A DNA stretch of 64,000 nt from contig JBHIBO010000009.1 of assembly GCA_046759185.1 (NCBI GenBank), positions 194 through 64,193 on the forward strand, read 5' to 3'. Below, piece after piece: positions 5,558-26,145 of the stretch. Origin of the DNA: Thermoplasmata archaeon (GTDB lineage: Archaea > Thermoplasmatota > Thermoplasmata > RBG-16-68-12 > JAJISG01). The notes beneath the pieces are model-generated. The model saw only the letters and a list, made by a program, of their open reading frames with translations. It had not been told where the DNA came from and searched no databases. Each line of letters opens with the position of its first letter. Position 1 is the stretch's first letter. Both the position numbers and the translations under genes were made by a program.

Positions 5558-6223
5558 TTACGGGGCGTCGCTGCCCTCGACCGTCACGCGGAGGCGTCCG
5601 ACACCCGAGACGCGAAGGTCAAGGCGATCCCCGGGGCGGACACGAGGCACGTTGGCAGGGGTCCCCGTTGCGATGACGTCCCCCCGTTCGAGGGTGATGC
5701 GGGTCGAGATGGCAGCCACGATGCCCGGGATGCGATGCACCATCTCGGCCGTGGAACCTCTCTGACGCAACTCCCCGTTCACCTCCAGGCATATCTCCAG
5801 GTCGTGGGGATCTCCCACATCTTCCCGGGGACGAAGCTTGGAAATGGGGGCGAAGCCGTCCATGCCCTTCGCCAACGTCCAGGGCAAGCCTTCGGCCATG
5901 GCGACGCGCTGCAGCTCCCGGGCCGTGATGTCGAGGAAGGCGCAGTATCCGAGGATGGAACCCTCGGCCTCCGAGGCTGGAACGGATTTCGTAGTGGCCC
6001 CCATCACGAAGGCCAATTCCGCCTCCGCCTCGAGGACCCCTGCCCCGAGAGGAGTAACGACCCGTCCCTCCTCGTGAAGCAGGGCGGTGGCGGGTTTGAG
6101 GAAGTAGACCGGTTCCGGTGGCGGCTCTGTCCCGCCCTCTCGGGCGTGGGCGCGGTAGTTACGGACGAGGCCGAGAATCTTGCCGACCCGAATCCTGCCG
6201 TCCGGTGTCTCCACCCAGCTCAT
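5558..6223 (-). CDS. Fumarylacetoacetate hydrolase (FAH) family protein (2-keto-4-pentenoate hydratase-like)
   Basis: FAH-fold signatures: YFLKPATAL, EAELAFVMG, GDVIATGTP. Confidence 0.8.
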   Translation of the reverse strand: MSWVETPDGRIRVGKILGLVRNYRAHAREGGTEPPPEPVYFLKPATALLHEEGRVVTPLGAGVLEAEAELAFVMGATTKSVPASEAEGSILGYCAFLDITARELQRVAMAEGLPWTLAKGMDGFAPISKLRPREDVGDPHDLEICLEVNGELRQRGSTAEMVHRIPGIVAAISTRITLERGDVIATGTPANVPRVRPGDRLDLRVSGVGRLRVTVEGSDAP

Positions 6224-6230
6224 GGCATCC

Positions 6231-7040
6231 CTACGCAGGGGGCTGAGAGGTGCGATCGATACGGGCTACCCGGGAGCGGGCGAGACTGATGGCGATGAGG
6301 GCCATCACCGCCGCCACGATGATTCCGAAGGCCGCAGCGACCTCTCCGACGTCTTGGACGAAGAGCTCCCCCAGGCCGGCGAGGAAATTGAAGGTCCCGT
6401 GCATGAGGACGGCCAGGAGGTAGAAGGGGAGGAGGGTCTTGCCGGGCACCAACCTGCTCACGGCCACGCCGTACCCGAAGGTCCCGGTGGCGGAGGCATG
6501 AAGGAGGGCGGAGGAGAAGCTCCGCACACCGATGAGAACCAACGAGGCGCCCAGGCCGCCCGCGGCGAAGGCGACGGCCCCGAAGGCCAGGTTCTCCGTG
6601 GCCGCGAACCCGAGCCCGGCGGAGGCACCGTACACGATGCCGTCCTCCACTTCGTTGATGCTTTCCGCGACCCGGAAGACGCCGAGCCCCTTGGCAAACT
6701 CCTCCGTGACGGGAGCCACGATGATGAGGAGCACCAGGACCCCCAGGTTGAGCTGAGATTCCAGGGCATCGACGAGGCCGACGTGGATGTGGCGGAGCAG
6801 GAAGGTTCCGGCCTCGAGAAGGACCGTGGCGAGGAGGAGGCTCAGAATGACGGCGACGATGACCCCGATGAAGGCGCCCCAGAGAAACGCCCGGAACACC
6901 CGCTGCCAGGGCTCCCTATCGTACCGCTCCGAATTCCGGAACCAGGCCACGAAGATGATGGGCGGGAGGAAGGCAAAGAAGATGAGGACCAGGATTACGG
7001 GGATCGAGAGAAGCCCTATCTGGGCGACGATGTCGATCAT
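6231..7040 (-). CDS. PrsW-family intramembrane metalloprotease
   Basis: Multi-TM protein with the EEFAKG (EExxK) motif and downstream FxxxH/HxxxN-like motifs typical of PrsW (DUF2324). Confidence 0.65.
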   Translation of the reverse strand: MIDIVAQIGLLSIPVILVLIFFAFLPPIIFVAWFRNSERYDREPWQRVFRAFLWGAFIGVIVAVILSLLLATVLLEAGTFLLRHIHVGLVDALESQLNLGVLVLLIIVAPVTEEFAKGLGVFRVAESINEVEDGIVYGASAGLGFAATENLAFGAVAFAAGGLGASLVLIGVRSFSSALLHASATGTFGYGVAVSRLVPGKTLLPFYLLAVLMHGTFNFLAGLGELFVQDVGEVAAAFGIIVAAVMALIAISLARSRVARIDRTSQPPA

Positions 7041-14614: not shown

Positions 14615-15265
14615 CTATGTAGCTTCCGCCGAAGGGGCGTGAACGAGAGAGACCTCCTCGAGCGTCGCCAGCGACCCCTCCAGGAGCGCATCATAATGCA
14701 TTTTTGCCTCCTCGGCCTCCACAATGTCGAGTCTAGCCCGGGTCGTCGGATGGGCTGGGCCCAGGACGTCGCACACCTCGGGGCCTACGGAGATGGGGTA
14801 GCTTCCGATGCGCTCGGCTTCGTGTACGATGTCCACCTTGTCCCATCCGATGAGGGGTCGCAGGACGGGGAGGTCCACGGCCGCCTCGATGGCGCGCAGG
14901 TTCCAGAGGGTCTGACTCGACACCTGGCCCAGGCTCTCACCGGTGATGAGGGATCCCGCCCCCTCTCGTATCGCGAGCGCCTCAGCGACGCGGAACATGA
15001 GGCGCTTGGAGAGGACGAAGTAGTAGCGCCGGCGACCTCGCCGGGCGATCTCGGCCAGGGCGTCCCCCAAGCGTGCAACGTACAGGGCCGAGAAACCGAG
15101 TCGTGCGGCCAATTTCCGGGACTTCTCCTCGGGAGAGCGGTCGGTGAAGGGTTCCAGCGAACAGTGGAGGGCGGTGACCTCGGTGCCCTGCCTGGTCATG
15201 AGGTGACCGGCTACCGGACTGTCAATGCCACCACTCAGGAGGAGCGTACCCTTCCCTGTTTTCAA
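14615..15265 (-). CDS. PP-loop ATPase, ThiI-like sulfurtransferase domain without N-terminal THUMP/ferredoxin-like domains
   Basis: PP-loop LLSGGIDSPVAGHLM; ThiI motifs LITGESLGQVSSQTLWNL and PLIGWDK; a single Cys in PEVCDV where ThiI has its catalytic Cys; only 216 aa. Confidence 0.7.
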   Translation of the reverse strand: MKTGKGTLLLSGGIDSPVAGHLMTRQGTEVTALHCSLEPFTDRSPEEKSRKLAARLGFSALYVARLGDALAEIARRGRRRYYFVLSKRLMFRVAEALAIREGAGSLITGESLGQVSSQTLWNLRAIEAAVDLPVLRPLIGWDKVDIVHEAERIGSYPISVGPEVCDVLGPAHPTTRARLDIVEAEEAKMHYDALLEGSLATLEEVSLVHAPSAEAT

Positions 15266-15308: not shown

Positions 15309-16307
15309 TCACAGGCCCACGTATCGTCGGTAGAGGGCCTGGGCAACTTCCGGGGACCGAGCGCCCCGGACGAGAGCGCGACCGTCTGGGAAGATGGAGA
15401 GACCGTAAGGTGGGACTTCCAGGGACAGCAGGTACGGTGTCAGACGAACGCGAGCGACGCGGGTGAGGCGGGCCGCGAGCCGTTCCAGGGACACGTCCTC
15501 CTCCCGGCCGGGGTCCACGGAAACGGTGTCTCCGCCGCAGAGCTGAACGACGGTCGGTCCGTTGTGTGGTCTGAGGAATTCCGGGGGGCTCCGCTGGCAT
15601 GCGGGGCACCCGACCCGAGGCGAAATCCTAACGCGTTGGACGTCCGGCTCGCCGTCTCGTAGGACATAGAGGCCCGGGGTTGTTGTTCCCGTCCGGAGGA
15701 AACCAAGTGCATGCGATGCGAGGAGATCCCCCACCCTGGCAGCGACGGGGGCGAGGCCCGTCATACACGGGATGGTCGGCCTTTCAAGCTGGGCTGGGAG
15801 AAGCAGGCATCGAAAGCACGGGGTTTCCGGAGGGTGGAGAGGGCTGGCCATCCCTAAGGCGCCGGCCGCTCCCCCGTAGAGGAAGGGGATGCGGTACTGG
15901 ATGCAAGCCTCGTTGAGAAGGAAGCGGGTCCGGAGGTTGTCCGTTCCGTCTACGACCACGTCGCTGTCCCCGACCAACGGGAGTACGGTTCCCGCGTGAA
16001 CGTCTCGTACCCAAGCTTCGACCCGGGCCTCCGGGTCGAGGGCTCGGAGTCGAGCCTGCGCAGCTATCGCCTTGGGGTCGCCGATGTCTTCCTTTTCGTA
16101 GAATGACGTCCTTTCCAGGTTCCGGCGGTCGACGAGGTCGCGATCGACGAGGACAATCTCCCGGGCTCCTCGTTGCACCAATCGCTCGGCCGCGACAGCC
16201 CCGACCGCTCCGAGCCCGACGACTACCACACGCCCTTTCGTGGGGGTCGGGGACGTGACGTGGTCAGAGGGCCTCGGATGAACCTGTTCGTCCGCCTGTC
16301 CCAACAT
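15309..16307 (-). CDS. ThiF/MoeB/HesA-family E1-like adenylyltransferase with a ~90 aa C-terminal extension
   Basis: Rossmann motif VVVVGLGAVGAVAAERL, plus VDRDLVDRRNLERT and a CxxC...CxxC zinc motif (CFRC...CPAC); 332 aa. Confidence 0.75.
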   Translation of the reverse strand: MLGQADEQVHPRPSDHVTSPTPTKGRVVVVGLGAVGAVAAERLVQRGAREIVLVDRDLVDRRNLERTSFYEKEDIGDPKAIAAQARLRALDPEARVEAWVRDVHAGTVLPLVGDSDVVVDGTDNLRTRFLLNEACIQYRIPFLYGGAAGALGMASPLHPPETPCFRCLLLPAQLERPTIPCMTGLAPVAARVGDLLASHALGFLRTGTTTPGLYVLRDGEPDVQRVRISPRVGCPACQRSPPEFLRPHNGPTVVQLCGGDTVSVDPGREEDVSLERLAARLTRVARVRLTPYLLSLEVPPYGLSIFPDGRALVRGARSPEVAQALYRRYVGL

Positions 16308-16424: not shown

Positions 16425-17435
16425 GTGTACGCCACGCGCATGAGCCGTCTGGAACCCAGCCCGGTGAGGGAGATTCAGGCCGCCCAGGAGCGCATCGCGG
16501 ACACGGCCGTGCGAACCCCCCTGGTCCGTCTCAATCTGGAGGACACACCGGCTGACATCTACCTGAAACTGGAGAATCTGCAGCCTGTAGGCTCCTTCAA
16601 AATGCGGGGGGCCGGCAACGCCGTCCTGAAGGCGGTCGAAGAGGGGCTCGAGGAGCGGGTTTGGACCGTGAGCGCGGGGAACATGGCTCAGGGCCTGGCC
16701 TGGTATGCGCACCACGTCGGCCTCCCGAGCAGCGTCCTCGTCCCGGAGGACGCTCCCGCGACGAAGCTCGCAGCCCTGGAACGCATGGGGACCGAAATCG
16801 TGTCCGTGTCCCACGAGGAGACGTTCCGGGTTGCCGCGTCAGGCCGGTACGCGGGCATCCAGGGTCACTTCGTCCATCCCTTCGCGGACCCGGACGTCAT
16901 CGCGGGTAACGGCACCATCGGGTTGGAGATTCTTGAGGATCTCCCGACCGTCGACGCCGTCGTGATTCCCTACGGGGGCGGTGGACTCAGTGTCGGGATC
17001 GCCTCCGCCCTCCAGGCCCAGTCTCCCGGCATGAGGGTCTTCGCCGCGGAGGTGGAGACGGCCGCTCCGTTAGCGGCGTCCCTGGCCGCGGGCTCGCCAC
17101 AGGAGGTCACCCGTACACCGAGCTTCATCGATGGGATCGGGCACCCCCTGGTGTACCCGGATATGTGGCACCTAGCGAGGCGTCTCCTGACCAGCTCCCT
17201 GGTGGTCCCCTTGGCGGAGGTTGTGGCGGCCATCCGCCTTCTCCTCGAACGCCATCGAATTGTCGTCGAGGGGGGAGGGGCGACGGCTCTGGCGGCCGCG
17301 TTGGCGGGGGGAGTCGACGGCGAGAAGATCGTCTGCATTGTTTCGGGAGGAAACCTGGATGCGAGGAGTCTTCGTGCCATTCTCCGGGGGGAAATTCCTG
17401 AAGGACCCCGCGGTGGGAAAGATCACAGCGGATAG
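16425..17435 (+). CDS. PLP-dependent threonine ammonia-lyase / serine-threonine dehydratase (fold type II)
   Basis: PLP-lysine motif GSFKMRGA and a glycine-rich IPYGGGGLSVG loop. GTG start at 16425; the in-frame ATG at 16440 is an alternative. Confidence 0.8.
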   Translation: MYATRMSRLEPSPVREIQAAQERIADTAVRTPLVRLNLEDTPADIYLKLENLQPVGSFKMRGAGNAVLKAVEEGLEERVWTVSAGNMAQGLAWYAHHVGLPSSVLVPEDAPATKLAALERMGTEIVSVSHEETFRVAASGRYAGIQGHFVHPFADPDVIAGNGTIGLEILEDLPTVDAVVIPYGGGGLSVGIASALQAQSPGMRVFAAEVETAAPLAASLAAGSPQEVTRTPSFIDGIGHPLVYPDMWHLARRLLTSSLVVPLAEVVAAIRLLLERHRIVVEGGGATALAAALAGGVDGEKIVCIVSGGNLDARSLRAILRGEIPEGPRGGKDHSG

Positions 17436-18926: not shown

Positions 18927-20162
18927 TCAATCTTTTCGCTTGAGCTGCTGCCCGGCCTCCTCGGCTCTCTGGGTCGCGTCCCGGAGCGGGATGTTCAGGG
19001 CGTCCGCAGCCTCCCGGACGTCCTCAAACTCGGGCTTGATGCTCAGGACCTCTCCCTGGGCACCCCGGGCGACCTTGAACTGGATCTTCGCCCCCTCGAG
19101 GGCGGGCACCTCCAGGGTCCTGGTTTCCCGTTCCAAGACCATGCGTCGTTGGGTCCGGTTTACCCGGACTCCCAGGGTCCCCGTCTCCCGCTGAATCAGA
19201 CCCACGATTCGGTCCTCCTGGCCCGGCGGGCTGAACACTTGGAGGAGGTGACCCGGTCGATTCTTCTTCGTCACCGTCGGAACGAGATGGAAGTCCAGGA
19301 CCCCCGCCGCCGTCAAGCGTTGCGCCAGATGTCCCAGGACCTCCCCCGTCACGTCATCGAGGTTGGTCTCCAGGACAGAGATGACCTCCTCTCCGGGGGG
19401 GCCGGTTCGACCCAGAATGGCGCGGAGGACGTTGGGGACTCCCTCCAGATCACGGCTACCCGCGCCGTACCCGATGGCCTCGGCGCGGATCGTGAAAGTA
19501 GGATCGAAACTGTCCACGAGGGCGGCCAACAGGGCGACCCCCGTGGGCGTCGCCAACGCCCCCATCGTTGATGTCTGATGGAAGGGGATGGCATGCACCG
19601 TCAGGATCTCGGCCACAACCGGGGGTGGGACGGGGAGACGACCATGACGAGTCTCCACGGTTCCGCTTCCCACGGCGACCGGCGTTGAGACGATCTGGGT
19701 CTGCCCGTCCAGGATGTCCAAGTCGTCGAGGAGCAGAGCCGTACCGAGCAAGTCTAGGATGGTGTCCGATGAGCCGAGTTCATGAAGGAGGACCTTCTCG
19801 CCGTCTTCCCCGTGTACGTCGCCCTCCGCATGTACCAGGATGCTCCCGGCCCGAAGCGCCATCTCCAGAGCCTGGTCAGTCAAGGTGAGGCCCGCGGCCA
19901 CCTCTTCAAGGGCTGCGAGAAACGCCGCTCCCGATCTCTCTTCCTCCTTCGACGGAAGGGACCAGTCCATCCACTGCACGCCGAGGCCGCCTCGGTGGAC
20001 GCGTTTGGCCTCCAGGGAAGCCGGCTGCCCCGCGTGTTTGGAGACGGCTACGGCCAGCCCGTCGAGGGGCTCCTGATTCGCTCCCAGGTCCAGCAGGCAA
20101 CCCAGGAGCATGTTCCCGCTGACGCCGGCCAACGACGGGTCCAAGAGGAGCACGCCGGCCAA
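18927..20162 (-). CDS. larC: LarC-family nickel-insertion protein (DUF111)
   Basis: N-terminal LLLDPSLAGVSGNMLLGCLLDLG signature, 411 aa. Confidence 0.8.
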   Translation of the reverse strand: MAGVLLLDPSLAGVSGNMLLGCLLDLGANQEPLDGLAVAVSKHAGQPASLEAKRVHRGGLGVQWMDWSLPSKEEERSGAAFLAALEEVAAGLTLTDQALEMALRAGSILVHAEGDVHGEDGEKVLLHELGSSDTILDLLGTALLLDDLDILDGQTQIVSTPVAVGSGTVETRHGRLPVPPPVVAEILTVHAIPFHQTSTMGALATPTGVALLAALVDSFDPTFTIRAEAIGYGAGSRDLEGVPNVLRAILGRTGPPGEEVISVLETNLDDVTGEVLGHLAQRLTAAGVLDFHLVPTVTKKNRPGHLLQVFSPPGQEDRIVGLIQRETGTLGVRVNRTQRRMVLERETRTLEVPALEGAKIQFKVARGAQGEVLSIKPEFEDVREAADALNIPLRDATQRAEEAGQQLKRKD

Positions 20163-20507: not shown

Positions 20508-20903
20508 CTACAGCTCCGCCAGGAGCCCCCGAACGCGCCCCTCAATCTCGTCCCGGAGGCCCCGGGCCTCCTCCTCCCCCATCCCGCCCGGGTCGGGGAG
20601 GGACCATTCCTCGGCGCGGTCGAGGATATTGGCGGGGCAAGCTTCCTCCGGGCTGCACCCCATGGTGACGATTCGGTCGGCCTGGCGTGCGAAGGCCATG
20701 TCCACCTCCTTCGGGACGTGGAGGGAGATATCGATGTTCCGCTCTCCCATGAGGCGCACCGCGACCGGGCTTACTTGCGAGGCGGGCTTCACGCCCCCGC
20801 TACGGACTAGGACCCCACGCGCCGCATGATGACGGGCGAACCCTTCCGCCATCTGGCTTCGGAAGCTGTTACCCACGCAGATGAAGAGGACCCGCTTGAC
20901 CAT
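20508..20903 (-). CDS. Low-molecular-weight phosphotyrosine phosphatase / arsenate reductase (ArsC, LMW-PTP family)
   Basis: CX5R P-loop in VLFICVGNSFRSQMAEGF. Confidence 0.8.
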   Translation of the reverse strand: MVKRVLFICVGNSFRSQMAEGFARHHAARGVLVRSGGVKPASQVSPVAVRLMGERNIDISLHVPKEVDMAFARQADRIVTMGCSPEEACPANILDRAEEWSLPDPGGMGEEEARGLRDEIEGRVRGLLAEL

Positions 20904-20927: not shown

Positions 20928-22391
20928 TCAGTAGCGGGTAAGCGTGGGATCGACCTGCGCTGCCCAAGCATCGATGCCCCCCGCCATGTTCCAGACGCGG
21001 GTGAACCCCAGGTCCCGTAGGAACTGGGTGATGCGTGCGCTGCGGGATCCGGTGTGGCAGTGGACGACGATGTTGTCTGCCGTGCTGAGTTCCCCGACCT
21101 TGTACGGGACCTCCCCCACCGGCATGAGTTTCGCGCCGTCGATGTGAACGATCTGCCACTCGATCGGCTCCCGGACGTCCAGGAGTGTGGCGTCGCCCTT
21201 CTGGACCATCACCGCTGCTTCCTGCACATCGACCTGGAACTCGCTCGCCAGGGCGTTCTCCGCCCCCAGGCCGCAGAAGGCCTCGTAGTCGATCAGCTCC
21301 GTCACCGTTGGGTTCTCCCCGCAGACGGGACAGCCCGGGTCCTTCCGGAGCTTCAGCTCCCGGAAGCTCATCTTCATCGCATCGAAGAGCAGCAGGCGTC
21401 CGACCAGGGTGTCCCCTTTCCCGAGGAGGACCTTCAGTGCCTCGTTGGCTTGGAGACTCCCCACGATCCCTGGCAGGACTCCTAGGACGCCGCCCTCCGC
21501 GCAGCTGGGCACGAGGCCCGGCGGCGGGGGCTCGGGGTAGAGGCACCGGTAGCAGGGACCCTGCGACGCGTCGAAGACGGAGACCTGCCCCTCGAAGCGG
21601 AAGATGCTTCCGTAGATGTTGGGCTTGCCCAGGATGACGCTCACGTCGTTGACGAGGTACCGGGTCGGGAAGTTGTCCGTCCCGTCGATGATGACGTCAT
21701 AGTCTCCCAGGATGTCGAGGGCGTTCTCACTGGTCAGGCGAACCTCGTGGGACTCCACCTGCACCCCGGGGTTGAGCGCTTCTAGCCTCTCCTGGGCCGC
21801 CTTCAGCTTGGGCCGGGCGAGGTCGTTGGTGTTGAAGAGGACCTGACGCTGGAGGTTGCTTTCGTCCACGGCGTCAAAATCCACCAGGCCGAGGCGGCCC
21901 ACGCCCGCGGCGGTGAGGTACATCCCCAGGGGAGCCCCGAGACCGCCTACGCCCACGATCAGGGCGCTGGATCGACGGAGGGTCTCTTGCCCCTCCAGAC
22001 CCACTTCCGGGAGGATCAGGTGTCGGCTGTAGCGCTTAATCTCTTCCTGTGTCAACCCCGCCTGGGGAGGCGGGCGCGGGCCGAGGGTAACGTTGGGGAA
22101 GGCGCCGCCGGCCACGCTGGGCACGATGATGACGGTGTCCCCCTCGGTCACGGAGGTGGCCTCCCGTTCCAGGTAGCGAATGTCCTCCTCGTTCACGTAG
22201 ACGTTCACGAAATTTCGGAGCTTGCCGTTGTCCCCGAGGAGGTACCGTTTGAGGGGTTCGTACTCTACGGCGAGCCCGTCCAAGAGCTCCTGGATCGTCT
22301 CTCCCTCCACGTCCAGGCTGTCTCGGTTCCCCACGTACTGCCGCAACGGCGTGGGAATTCGGATGGTCACGTTCGGCTTACTCATGCGCAC
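20928..22391 (-). CDS. Tri-domain fusion: MoaD/ThiS/CysO-like ubiquitin-like domain (ends ...PSVAGG) + MoeZ/MoeB-type E1 adenylyltransferase + C-terminal rhodanese
   Basis: Residues 1-96 form a beta-grasp Ubl ending in the GG motif typical of MoaD (GDTVIIVPSVAGG). Then comes the E1 domain (HLILPEVGLEGQETL, LIVGVGGLGAP, CxxC...CPVC), then a rhodanese domain with its active-site Cys (VVHCHTGSRSAR). Confidence 0.8.
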   Translation of the reverse strand: MRMSKPNVTIRIPTPLRQYVGNRDSLDVEGETIQELLDGLAVEYEPLKRYLLGDNGKLRNFVNVYVNEEDIRYLEREATSVTEGDTVIIVPSVAGGAFPNVTLGPRPPPQAGLTQEEIKRYSRHLILPEVGLEGQETLRRSSALIVGVGGLGAPLGMYLTAAGVGRLGLVDFDAVDESNLQRQVLFNTNDLARPKLKAAQERLEALNPGVQVESHEVRLTSENALDILGDYDVIIDGTDNFPTRYLVNDVSVILGKPNIYGSIFRFEGQVSVFDASQGPCYRCLYPEPPPPGLVPSCAEGGVLGVLPGIVGSLQANEALKVLLGKGDTLVGRLLLFDAMKMSFRELKLRKDPGCPVCGENPTVTELIDYEAFCGLGAENALASEFQVDVQEAAVMVQKGDATLLDVREPIEWQIVHIDGAKLMPVGEVPYKVGELSTADNIVVHCHTGSRSARITQFLRDLGFTRVWNMAGGIDAWAAQVDPTLTRY

Positions 22392-22824
22392 TCTCTCCTA
22401 CTTTTCCACGACGTTTAAACCTCAAGGGCTCCTCCACCATCTCCTCCTCTTCCCGGCGCCAAGCGGTCACGTCTCCCGACGCCTCTAACGCCGTGGCCAG
22501 GATGAGATAGGTGTACCACGGCCACGCCCGTTCGGTATCGTAGCGGGAGGGGGCGGCGGGGTGGTCGGGGTGGGAGTGATAGAACCCGAGCATGAGGAGG
22601 CCGCGATCGCGGGCCTCCCGATCCGCGTCGACGATGTCCCGAGGATCGATTTCGTAGCGGTCGCGTGTCGTCGCGGCGCGGAGATTGGTGGCCCGCCGGA
22701 TCGCCGTGACCTTGCGAACCTCTCCATCGAGGCCCAGAAGCACGCCGCACACCTCCGAGGGGTAGCCTTCTCGGGCGTGCTCTCGAAGTTCCTGGAGCAA
22801 CCTCTCCTCGAGTTCGAGCATCAA
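22378..22824 (-). CDS. JAMM/MPN+ metalloprotease (Mec+-like)
   Basis: JAMM motif E...HSHPDHPAAPSRYD (HxHx7SxxD) plus an upstream conserved Glu; 148 aa; overlaps the neighbouring genes at both ends. Confidence 0.8.
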   Translation of the reverse strand: MMLELEERLLQELREHAREGYPSEVCGVLLGLDGEVRKVTAIRRATNLRAATTRDRYEIDPRDIVDADREARDRGLLMLGFYHSHPDHPAAPSRYDTERAWPWYTYLILATALEASGDVTAWRREEEEMVEEPLRFKRRGKVGESAHE

Positions 22825-23762
22825 CCCTCCTCCCAGTAGCGTTCCGTCAGGTAGCGGTCGCCTGCGTCAGGAAAGACGGTGACGACAGTCCCCCTTCGGA
22901 GCCCCTTCGCGACTTGCAGTGCGGCGGCGAGGGCCGCACCCGATGAGGTCCCCACGAGAAGGCCTTCCCGCTCGGCCAGAAGGCGGGCGTGCCGCTGGGC
23001 TTCCTCCGTCTCCACGAAGAGGGTGTCGTCCTGAATCGTGGCGTCAAAGATTCCGGGCCGTATGGAGCTCTCCATGTGCTTCAGTCCCTCGATGCCATGG
23101 AGGGGTTCTCCGGGTTGGATACCGAGGATTTGGACCGAGGGGTCGTCTTCCCTGAGGCGTCGCCCGGTGCCCACCAAGGTCCCGCCCGTCCCCACCCCTG
23201 CAACGAAGTGGGTTATCTCGCCCCCCGTCTGATCGAGGATTTCCGGTGCGGTGCCCTCGTAGTGGGCCGCCCAATTCGCCGGGTTGTTGTATTGATCCAC
23301 GTAGAGGTACGCCCCGGGGTCCTCCCGATGGATCCGTGCGGCCACCCGCTGGGCCCCGTCGGTTCCCGCCAACGGGTCCGTCAGGACGAGTTCTGCGCCG
23401 AAGGAGCGCATGATGGTCTGACGGCCCCGACTCGCGTTGGAGGGGAGGACCAGCTTGGTGGGGATGCCCGTCGCGGCGCCGAGCATGGCTAGGGCGATGC
23501 CCGTGTTGCCGGAGGTGGCTTCCAGCAGGGTCATCCCCGCGCGGTAGGCGCCCGAAGCCAGGGCGTCGCGGATCATCCACAGCGCGGGTCGGTCCTTGAC
23601 GCTGCCCCCCGGGTTGAACCACTCGGCCTTGGCACGAAGCGTGACCCCATCCAGATCCCAAGACGCGGCATCCAGTCGGAGGAGCGGCGTGTTTCCAATC
23701 AAGGCTGTGATCGAAGCCTCCTGGAGCCTCCGGCCTGGCGTGCTTCCCACGCTGTCCTGCAT
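22821..23762 (-). CDS. cysM: Cysteine synthase (CysM/CysK family, PLP fold type II)
   Basis: PLP-lysine motif NPGGSVKDRPA, plus TSGNTGIALA and GVGTGGTLVG. Confidence 0.85.
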   Translation of the reverse strand: MQDSVGSTPGRRLQEASITALIGNTPLLRLDAASWDLDGVTLRAKAEWFNPGGSVKDRPALWMIRDALASGAYRAGMTLLEATSGNTGIALAMLGAATGIPTKLVLPSNASRGRQTIMRSFGAELVLTDPLAGTDGAQRVAARIHREDPGAYLYVDQYNNPANWAAHYEGTAPEILDQTGGEITHFVAGVGTGGTLVGTGRRLREDDPSVQILGIQPGEPLHGIEGLKHMESSIRPGIFDATIQDDTLFVETEEAQRHARLLAEREGLLVGTSSGAALAAALQVAKGLRRGTVVTVFPDAGDRYLTERYWEEG

Positions 23763-24137
23763 CTACGTGCCGTCCCCTTGGTAGGCCTTGAGGCCGATGC
23801 GCAGGGTGCTCAGGGAGAGGAGGGCACACTTGAGGCGAGCGTGGCTGATGGGGATGCCGAGGGTCTGCAGGACGGCGTCCTCGTCGATCTCGAGGACCTC
23901 CTTCAGGGTCTTCCCCTTGAGCTTCACGGTGAGCATGGAGGCGGAGGCCTGGCTGATGGCGCACCCTTCTCCCTGGAACTTCACGTCCTCCACGACGGCG
24001 TCGTCATCGAGCTTGAGGTAGAGGGCAATCTCGTCCCCGCACAGGGGGTTGTCCTCCCGGGCCCAGATATCGGCTTCCGCCAGGTCTCCCTTGTTCCGGG
24101 GGTTTTGGTAGTGATCCAGGATGGCCTCCTGATACAT
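23763..24137 (-). CDS. sufU: SufU/IscU-like Fe-S cluster assembly scaffold (NifU N-terminal type)
   Basis: Conserved motifs NPLCGDEIALYL, GEGCAISQASASM and HARLKCALL. Start at the ATG at 24137. The upstream 240 codons of the ORF-track ORF overlap sufS out of frame and are spurious. Confidence 0.8.
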   Translation of the reverse strand: MYQEAILDHYQNPRNKGDLAEADIWAREDNPLCGDEIALYLKLDDDAVVEDVKFQGEGCAISQASASMLTVKLKGKTLKEVLEIDEDAVLQTLGIPISHARLKCALLSLSTLRIGLKAYQGDGT

Positions 24138-24145
24138 CTCGTAGC

Positions 24146-25423
24146 TCACAGCCGGAAGACCTCCTTGACCCTCTCCAAGCCCTCGGCCAAGCGGTCGGCC
24201 TCGTCCCGGGTGTTGTACACGTAGAAGCTTGCTCGGGTGGTAGCGGGCACGTCCAGGCGGTCCATGAGGGGCTGAGCGCAGTGGTGACCGGCCCGGACGG
24301 CGATGCCTTCTGCGTCCAGGATCGAGGCGATGTCGTGGGCATGGACCCCCTCGAGCAGGAACGACAGAACGCCGGCTCGCTCTTTCACGTCGGTGGGGCC
24401 GTAGACGTGCAAGCCGTCGATGGCACCGAGCCGCTCCAAGGCATGTGCGCCGAGGACCATCTCGTGCTCTCGGACCCGGTGCATGTCTAACCCCTGGAGG
24501 TAGTCCACCGCGGCCCCGAGGCCGATGGCCCCCACGATGTTGGGCGTTCCTGCCTCGAACTTCCAAGGCAGGTCGTTCCAGCGGGCCCACCCTAGGTGGA
24601 CTTCCCGGATCATCTCCCCACCCCCCAGGAAGGGCTCCATCTCCTCCAGGACCTCCTCCCGCCCACACAGGGCCCCGATGCCCGTAGGCCCCAGCATCTT
24701 GTGCCCGGAGACGGCAAGGAAGTCGGCATCGATGGCCTGGGCGTCCACGGGCATGTGGGGGGCCGACTGGGCGGCGTCGACGAGGCAGAGGGCGTCGACC
24801 TCGTGGGCCCGCTTGGCGATCTCCGCCACGGGATTGATCGTCCCCAACACGTTGGAGCACTGGGTGACCGTGACGAGCTTGGTCTTCGAGGTAATGAGCT
24901 CGTCGTAGTCCTCCATTTTCAGCGTGCCGTCATCGTGAACATCCACCCACTTGAGGACCACGCCCTTCTGGTCCTGCAGGAAGTACCAGGGGATCGTGTT
25001 GGAGTGGTGCTCCATCACCGTGGAGACGATCTCGTCTCCCTCTTGGAGGCCCCCCTTCATCCCCCAGCCGTAGGCCACGGCGTTGATGGCCTCCGTCGTC
25101 CCGCTGGTGTAGACGACCTCTTCGCGAGCCCGGACGTTGAGGAAGGCCTGGAGCTTGTCCCGGGCGTCCTCGTACTCCTCCGTTGCCCGCTCCCCGAGTT
25201 CGTGGATGGCCCGATGGACGTTGGCCGTGTAGTGGTCCAGGTACTCGTTCATCTTCTCCACCACGGCCCGGGGTTTCTGGGACGTGGCCGCGTTGTCCAA
25301 GTAAACCAGCCGCTTCCCGTGGACCTCCTGGTCCAGAACGGGGAAGTCCTTCCGGACGACTCGTGCGTCCAAAACGCCCTCCTTCACCTTGCCCACCATC
25401 GCTATGCCTCCTCTCGCAACCAA
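24146..25423 (-). CDS. sufS: Cysteine desulfurase SufS (class II aminotransferase fold)
   Basis: Motifs YLDNAATSQKP and SGHKMLGPTGIGAL (PLP-Lys), and a C-terminal catalytic Cys region (RAGHHCAQP); 425 aa. Confidence 0.85.
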   Translation of the reverse strand: MVARGGIAMVGKVKEGVLDARVVRKDFPVLDQEVHGKRLVYLDNAATSQKPRAVVEKMNEYLDHYTANVHRAIHELGERATEEYEDARDKLQAFLNVRAREEVVYTSGTTEAINAVAYGWGMKGGLQEGDEIVSTVMEHHSNTIPWYFLQDQKGVVLKWVDVHDDGTLKMEDYDELITSKTKLVTVTQCSNVLGTINPVAEIAKRAHEVDALCLVDAAQSAPHMPVDAQAIDADFLAVSGHKMLGPTGIGALCGREEVLEEMEPFLGGGEMIREVHLGWARWNDLPWKFEAGTPNIVGAIGLGAAVDYLQGLDMHRVREHEMVLGAHALERLGAIDGLHVYGPTDVKERAGVLSFLLEGVHAHDIASILDAEGIAVRAGHHCAQPLMDRLDVPATTRASFYVYNTRDEADRLAEGLERVKEVFRL

Positions 25424-26145
25424 TCGTACCCTCGTTCCTCCAGCTCGGCCGCCAACTCTCTGCCGCCCGATCGGGCGATACGCCCCTCCATCAAGACGTG
25501 CACTTCCTGGGGGAGGATGTACCGGAGGATGCGCTGATAGTGCGTGATGAGGAGGATCCCCGTACCCTCCCGGGCGAGCCGATTCATCGCGTCGGCGACG
25601 ACCTGGAGGGAGTCGATGTCGAGCCCGGAGTCCGTCTCGTCCATGACGGCCAAGGGAGGACGCAACAGGGCCAACTGAAGGACCTCCGCTCGCTTCTTCT
25701 CGCCCCCGGAGAATCCCTGGTTCACGTACCGGTGGAGAAACGCATCCTCGATCCCCAGATGTTCGAGCTCCTGCCGCACCTGCGCGTCGAACGCCTCCCC
25801 GTTGGACTCCTCGGGCCGCAGGGACCGGTAGGCCTCCCGCAGGAACCGCTTCATCTTGACCCCCGGAAGGTCGGTGGGGTATTGGAAGCCTAGGAACAGG
25901 CCGCGACGGGCCCGTTCGTCTGTGTCCATGGCCAGGAGGTCCTCTCCATCCAGAAGCACTTGGCCGTCGAACACGCGGTATCCAGGATGCCCCAGCAGAA
26001 CGTACGCGAGGGTGGACTTCCCACTCCCGTTGGGCCCCATGAGGGCGTGAACCTCTCCCTGCCGAACCGAGAGGCTGATGCCTCGGAGGATCTGCTTCTC
26101 CTCGATGCCGGCACGGAGGTCTAGGATGTCCAACTGGGCTGGCAT
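25402..26145 (-). CDS. sufC: Fe-S cluster assembly ATPase SufC (copy 1)
   Basis: ABC ATPase with Walker [10 protein letters not shown] and signature [14 protein letters not shown]. Confidence 0.85.
   Translation of the reverse strand: MPAQLDILDLRAGIEEKQILRGISLSVRQGEVHALMGPNGSGKSTLAYVLLGHPGYRVFDGQVLLDGEDLLAMDTDERARRGLFLGFQYPTDLPGVKMKRFLREAYRSLRPEESNGEAFDAQVRQELEHLGIEDAFLHRYVNQGFSGGEKKRAEVLQLALLRPPLAVMDETDSGLDIDSLQVVADAMNRLAREGTGILLITHYQRILRYILPQEVHVLMEGRIARSGGRELAAELEERGYDWLREEA

Follow-up and report, generated by a model that had tools for sequence, protein, structure and literature searches.

How does a sulfur carrier acquire the free C-terminal glycine on which its activating enzyme acts, when the gene places that glycine in the interior of a much longer chain? 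The question is raised by one gene in a 64,000-nucleotide (nt) stretch of DNA from a Thermoplasmata archaeon (contig JBHIBO010000009.1; "the window" hereafter means this whole stretch). The gene joins in a single reading frame a ubiquitin-like (Ubl) domain of the ThiS/MoaD/CysO type, a short linker, a MoeZ-like activating enzyme (E1), and a rhodanese domain, and it lies directly downstream of a gene for a JAMM metalloprotease. By the chemistry of E1 enzymes a thiocarboxylate cannot form on an internal Gly, and it is the thiocarboxylate form of a carrier that CysM requires. The primary translation product continues for 391 residues beyond the Gly-Gly (GG) of the Ubl domain, so the Gly is internal and a free Gly carboxylate requires proteolysis. 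An earlier note on this DNA had predicted a polyprotein processed by JAMM. That prediction gains support from the conservation of the GG, the disordered linker that follows it, the interconversion of fused and split forms of the locus, the finding that none of 80 carriers ends at GG, and a known single chain that carries a JAB domain together with the fusion domains. Sequence comparison points to the fusion being a pro-protein that is probably cut at Gly94-Ala95 by the adjacent JAMM and feeds a CysO-type synthesis of cysteine.

Gly-Gly as an internal carrier terminus

The fusion gene and its parts are as follows, with residues counted from the ATG start unless the GTG count is stated:

20928..22385, minus strand: fusion gene, CysO-like Ubl + linker + MoeZ-like E1 + rhodanese, 485 residues and 52.8 kDa from the ATG
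22391, minus strand: alternative GTG start of the fusion gene (open reading frame (ORF) 20928..22391)
22104..22385, minus strand: Ubl domain, ThiS/MoaD/CysO-type beta-grasp, residues 1-94 (Pfam ThiS, CysO 3dwg_C, AlphaFold2)
22104..22109, minus strand: Gly93-Gly94 codons GGC GGC, next to the predicted scissile bond Gly94-Ala95
22062..22103, minus strand: disordered linker AFPNVTLGPRPPPQ, residues 95-108 (AlphaFold2 confidence and variable alignment columns)
21318..22061, minus strand: E1 adenylation domain, ThiF/MoeB/MoeZ type, residues 109-356 (Pfam ThiF 4.6e-82)
20958..21227, minus strand: rhodanese domain, residues 387-476 (Pfam Rhodanese 4.7e-18; loop CHTGSRS)

The ATG at 22385 appears the likelier start, because a GGAG lies 7 nt upstream of it and gene callers give homologues of 484-485 residues. 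A protein from an independent contig (P0001) is 100% identical to the window fusion and supports the ATG-start length. The internal GG at the Ubl-E1 boundary is present with the sequence given in the earlier note, whose residue numbers, 95-96, hold for the GTG count but become 93-94 from the likelier ATG. Its 14-nt overlap between the JAMM gene and the fusion is likewise correct from the GTG, whereas the JAMM stop lies 8 nt inside the ORF that begins at the ATG (overlap ATGAGTAA). An assembly or frameshift artefact was considered as the origin of the fusion; it is ruled out by the identical independent contig, by 118 full-length tri-domain homologues, and by 31 fused loci in species-representative genomes.

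The fusion protein contains four GG dipeptides, and only GG93-94 matches the place where four independent carrier models end. It is the final position of Pfam ThiS (76/76), to which the Ubl matches over the whole profile (1-76 of 76, E 1.5e-13), and of NCBIfam SAMP1 (91/91) and moaD_arch (88/88). It also aligns to C-terminal residue 93 of Mycobacterium tuberculosis CysO (3dwg_C, a 93-residue chain), residues 2-93 of which align with Ubl residues 5-94 at E 4e-17. A chance occurrence of GG is ruled out by this coincidence with the terminal position of four models, which identifies the dipeptide as the canonical carrier C terminus, now internal. In the GTG count, Pfam places ThiS at 10-96, ThiF at 121-356, and Rhodanese at 389-478, the ThiS match stopping on the GG. 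Around the boundary the translation runs ...GDTVIIVPSVAGG up to the predicted cut and AFPNVTLGPRPPPQAG after it, and the E1 then begins LTQEEIKRYSRHLILPEVG. The peptide that spans Gly94-Ala95 is EATSVTEGDTVIIVPSVAGGAFPNVTLGPR, and the semi-tryptic peptides flanking the predicted cut are EATSVTEGDTVIIVPSVAGG on the carrier side and AFPNVTLGPR on the E1 side. The computed mass of the predicted Ubl fragment, which would end ...VPSVAGG, is 10,524 Da, or 10,393 Da minus Met1; the predicted E1-rhodanese fragment comes to 42,262 Da and the uncut chain to 52,768 Da.

An AlphaFold2 model built on a 42-sequence alignment contains three confident domains (mean predicted local distance difference test score, pLDDT, 87.5; predicted template modelling score 0.75). 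The Ubl is a confident beta-grasp (pLDDT ~90), and residues 93-108, comprising the GG and the linker, form the only long segment with pLDDT <50. In this model the bond predicted to be cut sits where an exposed, disordered tether begins. The linker is Pro-rich, as the earlier note had described it, with 5 Pro in 16 residues, and is Ala/Pro-rich in homologues. The NCBIfam MoeZ model aligns from residue 100 onward (model position 4) and the MoeB model from residue 110 (model position 10), indicating that the linker is essentially the native N-terminal tail of the E1; by these alignments the architecture is an end-to-end gene fusion.

The enzymatic domains retain recognizable features. The E1 carries the motifs GVGGLG, CYRC, and CPVC, the latter two forming two CxxC pairs, and matches ThiF, MoeB, and Uba4 among PDB structures. 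Against NCBIfam, the E1-rhodanese region scores 477 with MoeZ, where the cut-off of 647 is not reached, and 458.5 with MoeB PRK08762, where the cut-off of 449 is reached. The rhodanese keeps its catalytic Cys in the CHTGSRS active-site loop. Public entries for the tri-domain fusion (P0004, P0007, P0014, P0046, P0113) are named "molybdopterin-synthase adenylyltransferase MoeB" or "ubiquitin-like small modifier protein 1", and such names conceal the fusion, the carrier, and the context of a cysteine pathway.

Conservation at the boundary was followed at two depths. The 120 best database matches are all tri-domain or truncated forms of the same fusion, and in the alignment of the 118 full-length homologues (63-100% identity) both Gly residues, G93 and G94, are invariant in 118/118. 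The preceding I-V-P-S-[IV]-A is likewise invariant in 118/118, and residues 95-110 are highly variable, with one indel. A more distant set comes from an exhaustive HMMER search with residues 1-170 against a library of one representative per 50%-identity cluster, which returned 3568 matches at E<=1e-10. Among the best 150 of these 3568, 86 span the boundary with the pattern [PA]x[ILVM]AGG, a linker, and the start of the E1. In these 86 representatives 9-39 residues separate GG from RYxRH, the linker varies in length and is rich in Ala and Pro, and the residue directly after GG, which would be P1' of a cut, is mostly Ala, Ser, or Thr. Two further representatives missed by the pattern do carry GG, and the exceptions among the best 150 are one ACG and three deleted, garbled, or frameshift-like boundaries, all of them single database entries.

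The dipeptide is also kept in all 31 fused genomic loci, so that a look for homologues lacking it, as the earlier note had proposed, returned GG in the 118 close homologues, the 86 distant representatives, and the fused loci alike. Other architectures of the family retain it as well: a ThiS-Rhodanese-ThiF protein (P0159, 486 residues) and tandem ThiS-ThiS proteins with an internal GG (P0168 and P0217, ~190 residues). A 634-residue protein (P0238) carries JAB-ThiS-Rhodanese-ThiF as a single chain with the GG retained, so that protease and presumed substrate are physically linked. A Rhodanese-ThiF-ThiS protein, with the Ubl at the C terminus, occurs also (P0233, 384 residues).

Fused and split loci

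The same genes occur with the carrier fused to the E1 or separate from it. When a single genome of each species was scanned with an alignment of 6 closer sequences, restricted to the Ubl, 80 loci emerged, a sample biased by that alignment toward the IVPS[IV]AGG subfamily. The order cysM-JAMM-cysO-moeZ is conserved across the 80 loci, of which 31 are fused and 49 split. Three of the 80 are archaeal (Methanomassiliicoccales, Thermoplasmata, and 'Methanobacteriota'); the remainder are mainly from Acidobacteriota, with single loci from Chloroflexia, Gemmatimonadales, Eisenbacteria, Dormiibacterota, and Chitinophagaceae. Three further contigs (L081, L082, and L083) have the same arrangement, one of them with a fusion in which the Ubl shares just 34% identity.

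Among the new observations the most useful concerns the carriers themselves, all of which in this clade are made with residues beyond the GG. Not one of the 80 (0/80) ends at GG, and 1-421 residues follow the dipeptide. The 49 split carriers bear tails of 1-32 residues, such as AA, R, F, RHVG, and SSLRCICS. That no carrier ends at GG implies that post-GG residues must be trimmed throughout the clade, and on these sequences trimming by JAMM appears obligatory there; the count further suggests that such trimming is integral to the system and possibly regulatory.

The tail of a split carrier is coded where its gene runs, out of frame, into the moeZ start codon, and a shift of 1 nt would therefore fuse cysO and moeZ. 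Fitch parsimony on a neighbour-joining tree of the E1-rhodanese sequences of 74 loci gives at least five transitions between the fused and split states, and both states occur within orders. The fused and split forms are thus interchangeable in function.

Two side observations concern these sequences. Several split tails are rich in Cys (SSLRCICS, LNLRCICR, ...PLRCICS, ...CRTMCCCPACRCC, CCVMTCGT, CCALI, CCCCCCL, and a single C; seen, for example, in L048 at 6001-6294, L057, L032, L030, and L066, and in proteins P0200, P0230, P0242, and P0263), and a tail that begins with Cys resembles the CysO-Cys product. In the E1-rhodanese tree the archaeal fused genes (L001-L003 compared) stand beside bacterial fused genes from an unclassified metagenome-assembled genome (L010), Chloroflexia (L062), and Gemmatimonadales (L059) instead of separating from bacteria as a whole, a placement that suggests inter-domain transfer of the whole operon.

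The split loci also bear on whether the fusion is cut at all. Conceivably it never is, the Ubl acting as a docking, regulatory, or pseudo-substrate domain while the E1 activates a separate carrier encoded elsewhere; ThiS-ThiF fusions whose operons also hold a solo ThiS provide a parallel. Such a separate carrier was sought as a free GG-terminated beta-grasp ORF, and none was found in fused loci L081-L083 and none convincing within the 64-kb window. Moreover, in orthologous split loci this Ubl is a protein of its own, the state having switched at least five times, and the GG is invariant over deep divergence while the adjoining linker is unconstrained. The thiocarboxylate that CysM needs, in turn, cannot be formed by an internal Gly. 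An uncut fusion is thus quite unlikely, and release of the Ubl by cleavage at the GG remains the preferred reading.

The adjacent JAMM and the proposed pathway

The candidate protease and the remaining pathway enzymes are encoded next to the fusion in a run of tightly coupled minus-strand genes:

25402..26145, minus strand: SufC
24146..25423, minus strand: SufS-type cysteine desulfurase (Aminotran_5 9.5e-149)
23763..24137, minus strand: SufU/IscU-like scaffold (NifU_N)
22821..23762, minus strand: CysM-like, pyridoxal phosphate-dependent cysteine synthase (PALP 5.6e-73)
22378..22821, minus strand: JAMM/MPN+ metalloprotease, 147 residues (Prok-JAB 4.7e-26)
20508..20903, minus strand: low-molecular-weight (LMW) phosphatase/ArsC-family protein (LMWPc 3.3e-19), 24 nt downstream of the fusion

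The metal motif of the JAMM is intact (E...HSHPDHPAAPSRYD, that is, E...HSHx7Sx2D), and its nearest structures are the Salinibacter MPN protein 2kcq (E 3e-24) and Pyrococcus PfJAMM1 5ld9. The cysM stop and the JAMM ATG overlap by a single base (TGATG). The CysM-like gene, two genes upstream of the fusion and linked to it by synteny in 60 of the 80 loci, encodes a protein that matches CysM structures in the PDB, including M. tuberculosis 3dwg_A. Its best NCBIfam model is TIGR01138 cysM, with 373 bits narrowly under the cut-off of 394.

In the proposed scheme, translation would yield a 52.8-kDa pro-protein consisting of a CysO-type carrier, a disordered linker of ~15 residues, and a MoeZ-type E1 with rhodanese. 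The JAMM, encoded upstream and translationally coupled, would hydrolyze Gly94-Ala95 to generate a 94-residue, 10.5-kDa carrier and a 391-residue, 42.3-kDa E1-rhodanese in a 1:1 ratio. Following the chemistry of the family, the E1 would adenylate the free Gly carboxylate of the carrier, and the rhodanese persulfide would turn the adenylate into a thiocarboxylate. By analogy with M. tuberculosis, the CysM-like enzyme may add this thiocarboxylate to activated serine to form carrier-Cys, and the same JAMM may then free the cysteine and restore the carrier, as Mec+, the JAMM of M. tuberculosis, hydrolyzes CysO-Cys in every turnover (PMC3227635). A single JAMM active site would in this way hydrolyze Gly-Ala once and Gly-Cys repeatedly, and the small residues found after the GG (Ala, Ser, or Thr, small like Cys) fit one site that cuts both bonds. 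SufS is a possible source of the persulfide for the rhodanese, or may simply serve Fe-S assembly; the same SufS gene order recurs in L081 and L082.

The scheme gains support from the position of the JAMM gene, which is the immediate upstream neighbor in 29/29 fused loci where the flank is long enough versus 27/46 split loci (Fisher p = 1.8e-5, phylogeny ignored). Several observations weigh against it. The earlier note had read the neighboring JAMM as the arrangement predicted for Ubl polyproteins, but adjacency is no specific sign of such processing, since a Mec+ role needs a JAMM and 27 of the 46 split loci have one adjacent too. Being expected from the Mec+ role already, adjacency alone fails to identify the maturase. 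The other 19 of the 46 split loci have post-GG tails and no adjacent JAMM, indicating that a distant JAMM or another peptidase can trim.

The GG might thus be cut by another peptidase or by autocatalysis, leaving the adjacent JAMM only the task of a Mec+-type CysO-Cys hydrolase, a role that fully explains its adjacency (PMC3227635) and with which the tailed split loci agree. The invariable adjacency in fused loci compared with split ones argues the other way, as do the JAB-ThiS-Rhodanese-ThiF chain and the capacity of a Mec+-type active site, which already hydrolyzes a Gly-X peptide bond at this position. JAMMs are, in addition, shown cutting after the carrier Gly in QbsE, MoaD-MoaE, and SAMP1 fusions (PMC5925218, PMC8832034). 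On balance a different maturase is unlikely, and the adjacent JAMM is the probable one.

Other points on the negative side concern the GG and the enzymes. HvJAMM1 cuts linear fusions without needing a diglycine (Hepowit 2012, as cited in PMC8832034), from which it would follow that GG conservation reflects E1/thiocarboxylate chemistry rather than recognition by a protease. One distant representative has ACG in place of AGG at the boundary. With SufS as the sulfur source, the pathway would spend cysteine to make cysteine. Finally, the JAMM, the CysM-like enzyme, and the E1 all score under the equivalog thresholds that NCBIfam sets for desampylase, cysM, and MoeZ, respectively.

These scores also enter into the function of the released Ubl, which might be mainly a SAMP-like modifier, with the JAMM as its desampylase, instead of a cysteine carrier. 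The host is an archaeon, and among NCBIfam models SAMP1 ranks first for the Ubl, as Haloferax desampylase does for the JAMM; yet both scores fall under the cut-offs (50 bits versus 60 for SAMP1, 102 versus 130 for desamp_Halo), and the nearest solved Ubl structure is CysO. The synteny of cysM, JAMM, Ubl, and E1-rhodanese is, furthermore, common to Acidobacteriota, Chloroflexia, and Gemmatimonadales and matches both operon type 4c (PMC1779556) and the M. tuberculosis pathway. A modifier role is therefore very improbable, and a carrier for cysteine synthesis is favored.

A more speculative extension, to be held as a possibility rather than an expectation, is that the carrier is obligatorily made as a pro-protein in the whole CysO clade, and that the JAMM is dual-function, maturing a carrier-E1 zymogen once and acting thereafter as a CysO-Cys hydrolase. 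If so, thiocarboxylate-dependent cysteine synthesis would be controlled at its start and again during turnover by JAMM activity, and with it by the metal or redox state of the enzyme. A system that tolerates whatever extension follows the GG would then explain why the carrier has repeatedly been fused to E1, rhodanese-E1, and JAMM.

The surroundings of the operon are archaeal in character: the window has 64% G+C and archaeal genes such as Csl4, and the nearest fusion homologues are named Thermoplasmata. The LMW phosphatase/ArsC gene keeps its position in the archaeal relatives L001 and L082 and was not found in the bacterial loci. Between it and methyltransferase/Csl4 genes lies a LarC-type nickel-insertion gene (18927..20162, minus strand; Ni_insertion E 1e-102), which is absent from that position in L082. 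A second ThiF-family E1 of 332 residues, without Ubl and without rhodanese, is encoded at 15309..16307 (minus strand), adjoining a ThiI-like PP-loop protein (14615..15265, minus strand) and a second PALP enzyme (16425..17435, plus strand). These three genes may form a separate sulfur-relay or tRNA-thiolation module, and in L082 a ThiF gene also occurs further downstream.

Comparison with known systems

Among the closest known systems is the thiocarboxylate-dependent cysteine biosynthesis of M. tuberculosis by CysO, CysM, Mec+, and MoeZ (Burns et al. 2005, as summarized in PMC3227635). The window encodes the same four activities, its Ubl aligns end-to-end with CysO, and cysM, JAMM, and cysO are clustered in both. 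In M. tuberculosis, however, CysO is a separate 93-residue protein that ends in GG, and moeZ is unlinked. In the window the carrier is fused to the E1, and hence a maturation cut would precede the first cycle; the host is an archaeon, and the CysM-like enzyme and the E1 score just under the equivalog thresholds of NCBIfam for cysM and MoeZ.

In gene content the locus equals operon type 4c, which consists of ThiS/MoaD, E1-rhodanese, JAB, and cysteine synthase (Iyer, Burroughs and Aravind 2006, PMC1779556). There the Ubl is a separate gene and the table contains no archaeon, whereas here the Ubl is fused. The same study predicted that JAB releases a ThiS/MoaD fused to another protein, giving a free C terminus (PMC1779556).

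Release of a fused carrier by a JAMM has experimental precedents. In 2018 the Deinococcus radiodurans JAMM DR0402 was found to cut a natural MoaD-MoaE fusion, exposing the Gly (PMC8832034), and HvJAMM1 cleaves linear SAMP1 fusions such as SAMP1-MoaE (described in the same article). As in the window, a carrier Ubl is in frame with a pathway partner, JAMM release being experimental for MoaD-MoaE and predicted here. The MoaD-MoaE system differs in that the partner is the sulfur acceptor MoaE and not an E1, the pathway leads to molybdopterin, and the JAMM is not needed in every cycle. M. tuberculosis has a MoaD-MoaE fusion as well, MoaX, which is reportedly cleaved and is not counted as evidence here; its gene is listed in PMC3227635.

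Shorter extensions are known as well. QbsD trims QbsE-GG-CF, and CxnF is proposed to trim CxnE-SEAARAEESR (PMC5925218). In those systems, as in the window, the residues after GG must go before adenylation and the cluster includes the JAMM gene; tails of this kind occur in the split relatives of the window fusion. Unlike these extensions of 2-10 residues, that of the window is a 391-residue enzyme.

Fusions of Ubl to E1 have been reported elsewhere: Ubl-E1-TBP in Thaumarchaeota (PMC2948915) and Ubl-ThiF in Campylobacter and relatives (PMC1779556). They share with the window an N-terminal Ubl on an E1 adenylation domain, but involve other Ubl families and C-terminal domains, and a cysM-JAMM context is not reported for them. 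The ThiF cases of the Campylobacter type have a second, solo ThiS, and the fused Ubl there may not be a substrate. A literature search for an experimental study of a CysO-MoeZ or Ubl-E1 fusion found only comparative-genomic mentions.

New in the window is the joining of a carrier, in an archaeal host, to the very enzyme that activates it; the type of operon and the notion that JAB frees fused carriers were already in print in 2006. With the mechanism predicted then and close experimental precedents since, the locus should interest the specialist without causing surprise. If the fusion is cleaved, it would be a clear case of a prokaryotic Ubl translated in fusion with its own E1 and released by a JAMM at Gly-Gly, and the range of the CysO pathway known from M. 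tuberculosis would come to include archaea (Thermoplasmata) and many soil bacteria. Its parallel in eukaryotes would be the ubiquitin-ribosomal-protein and polyubiquitin precursors.

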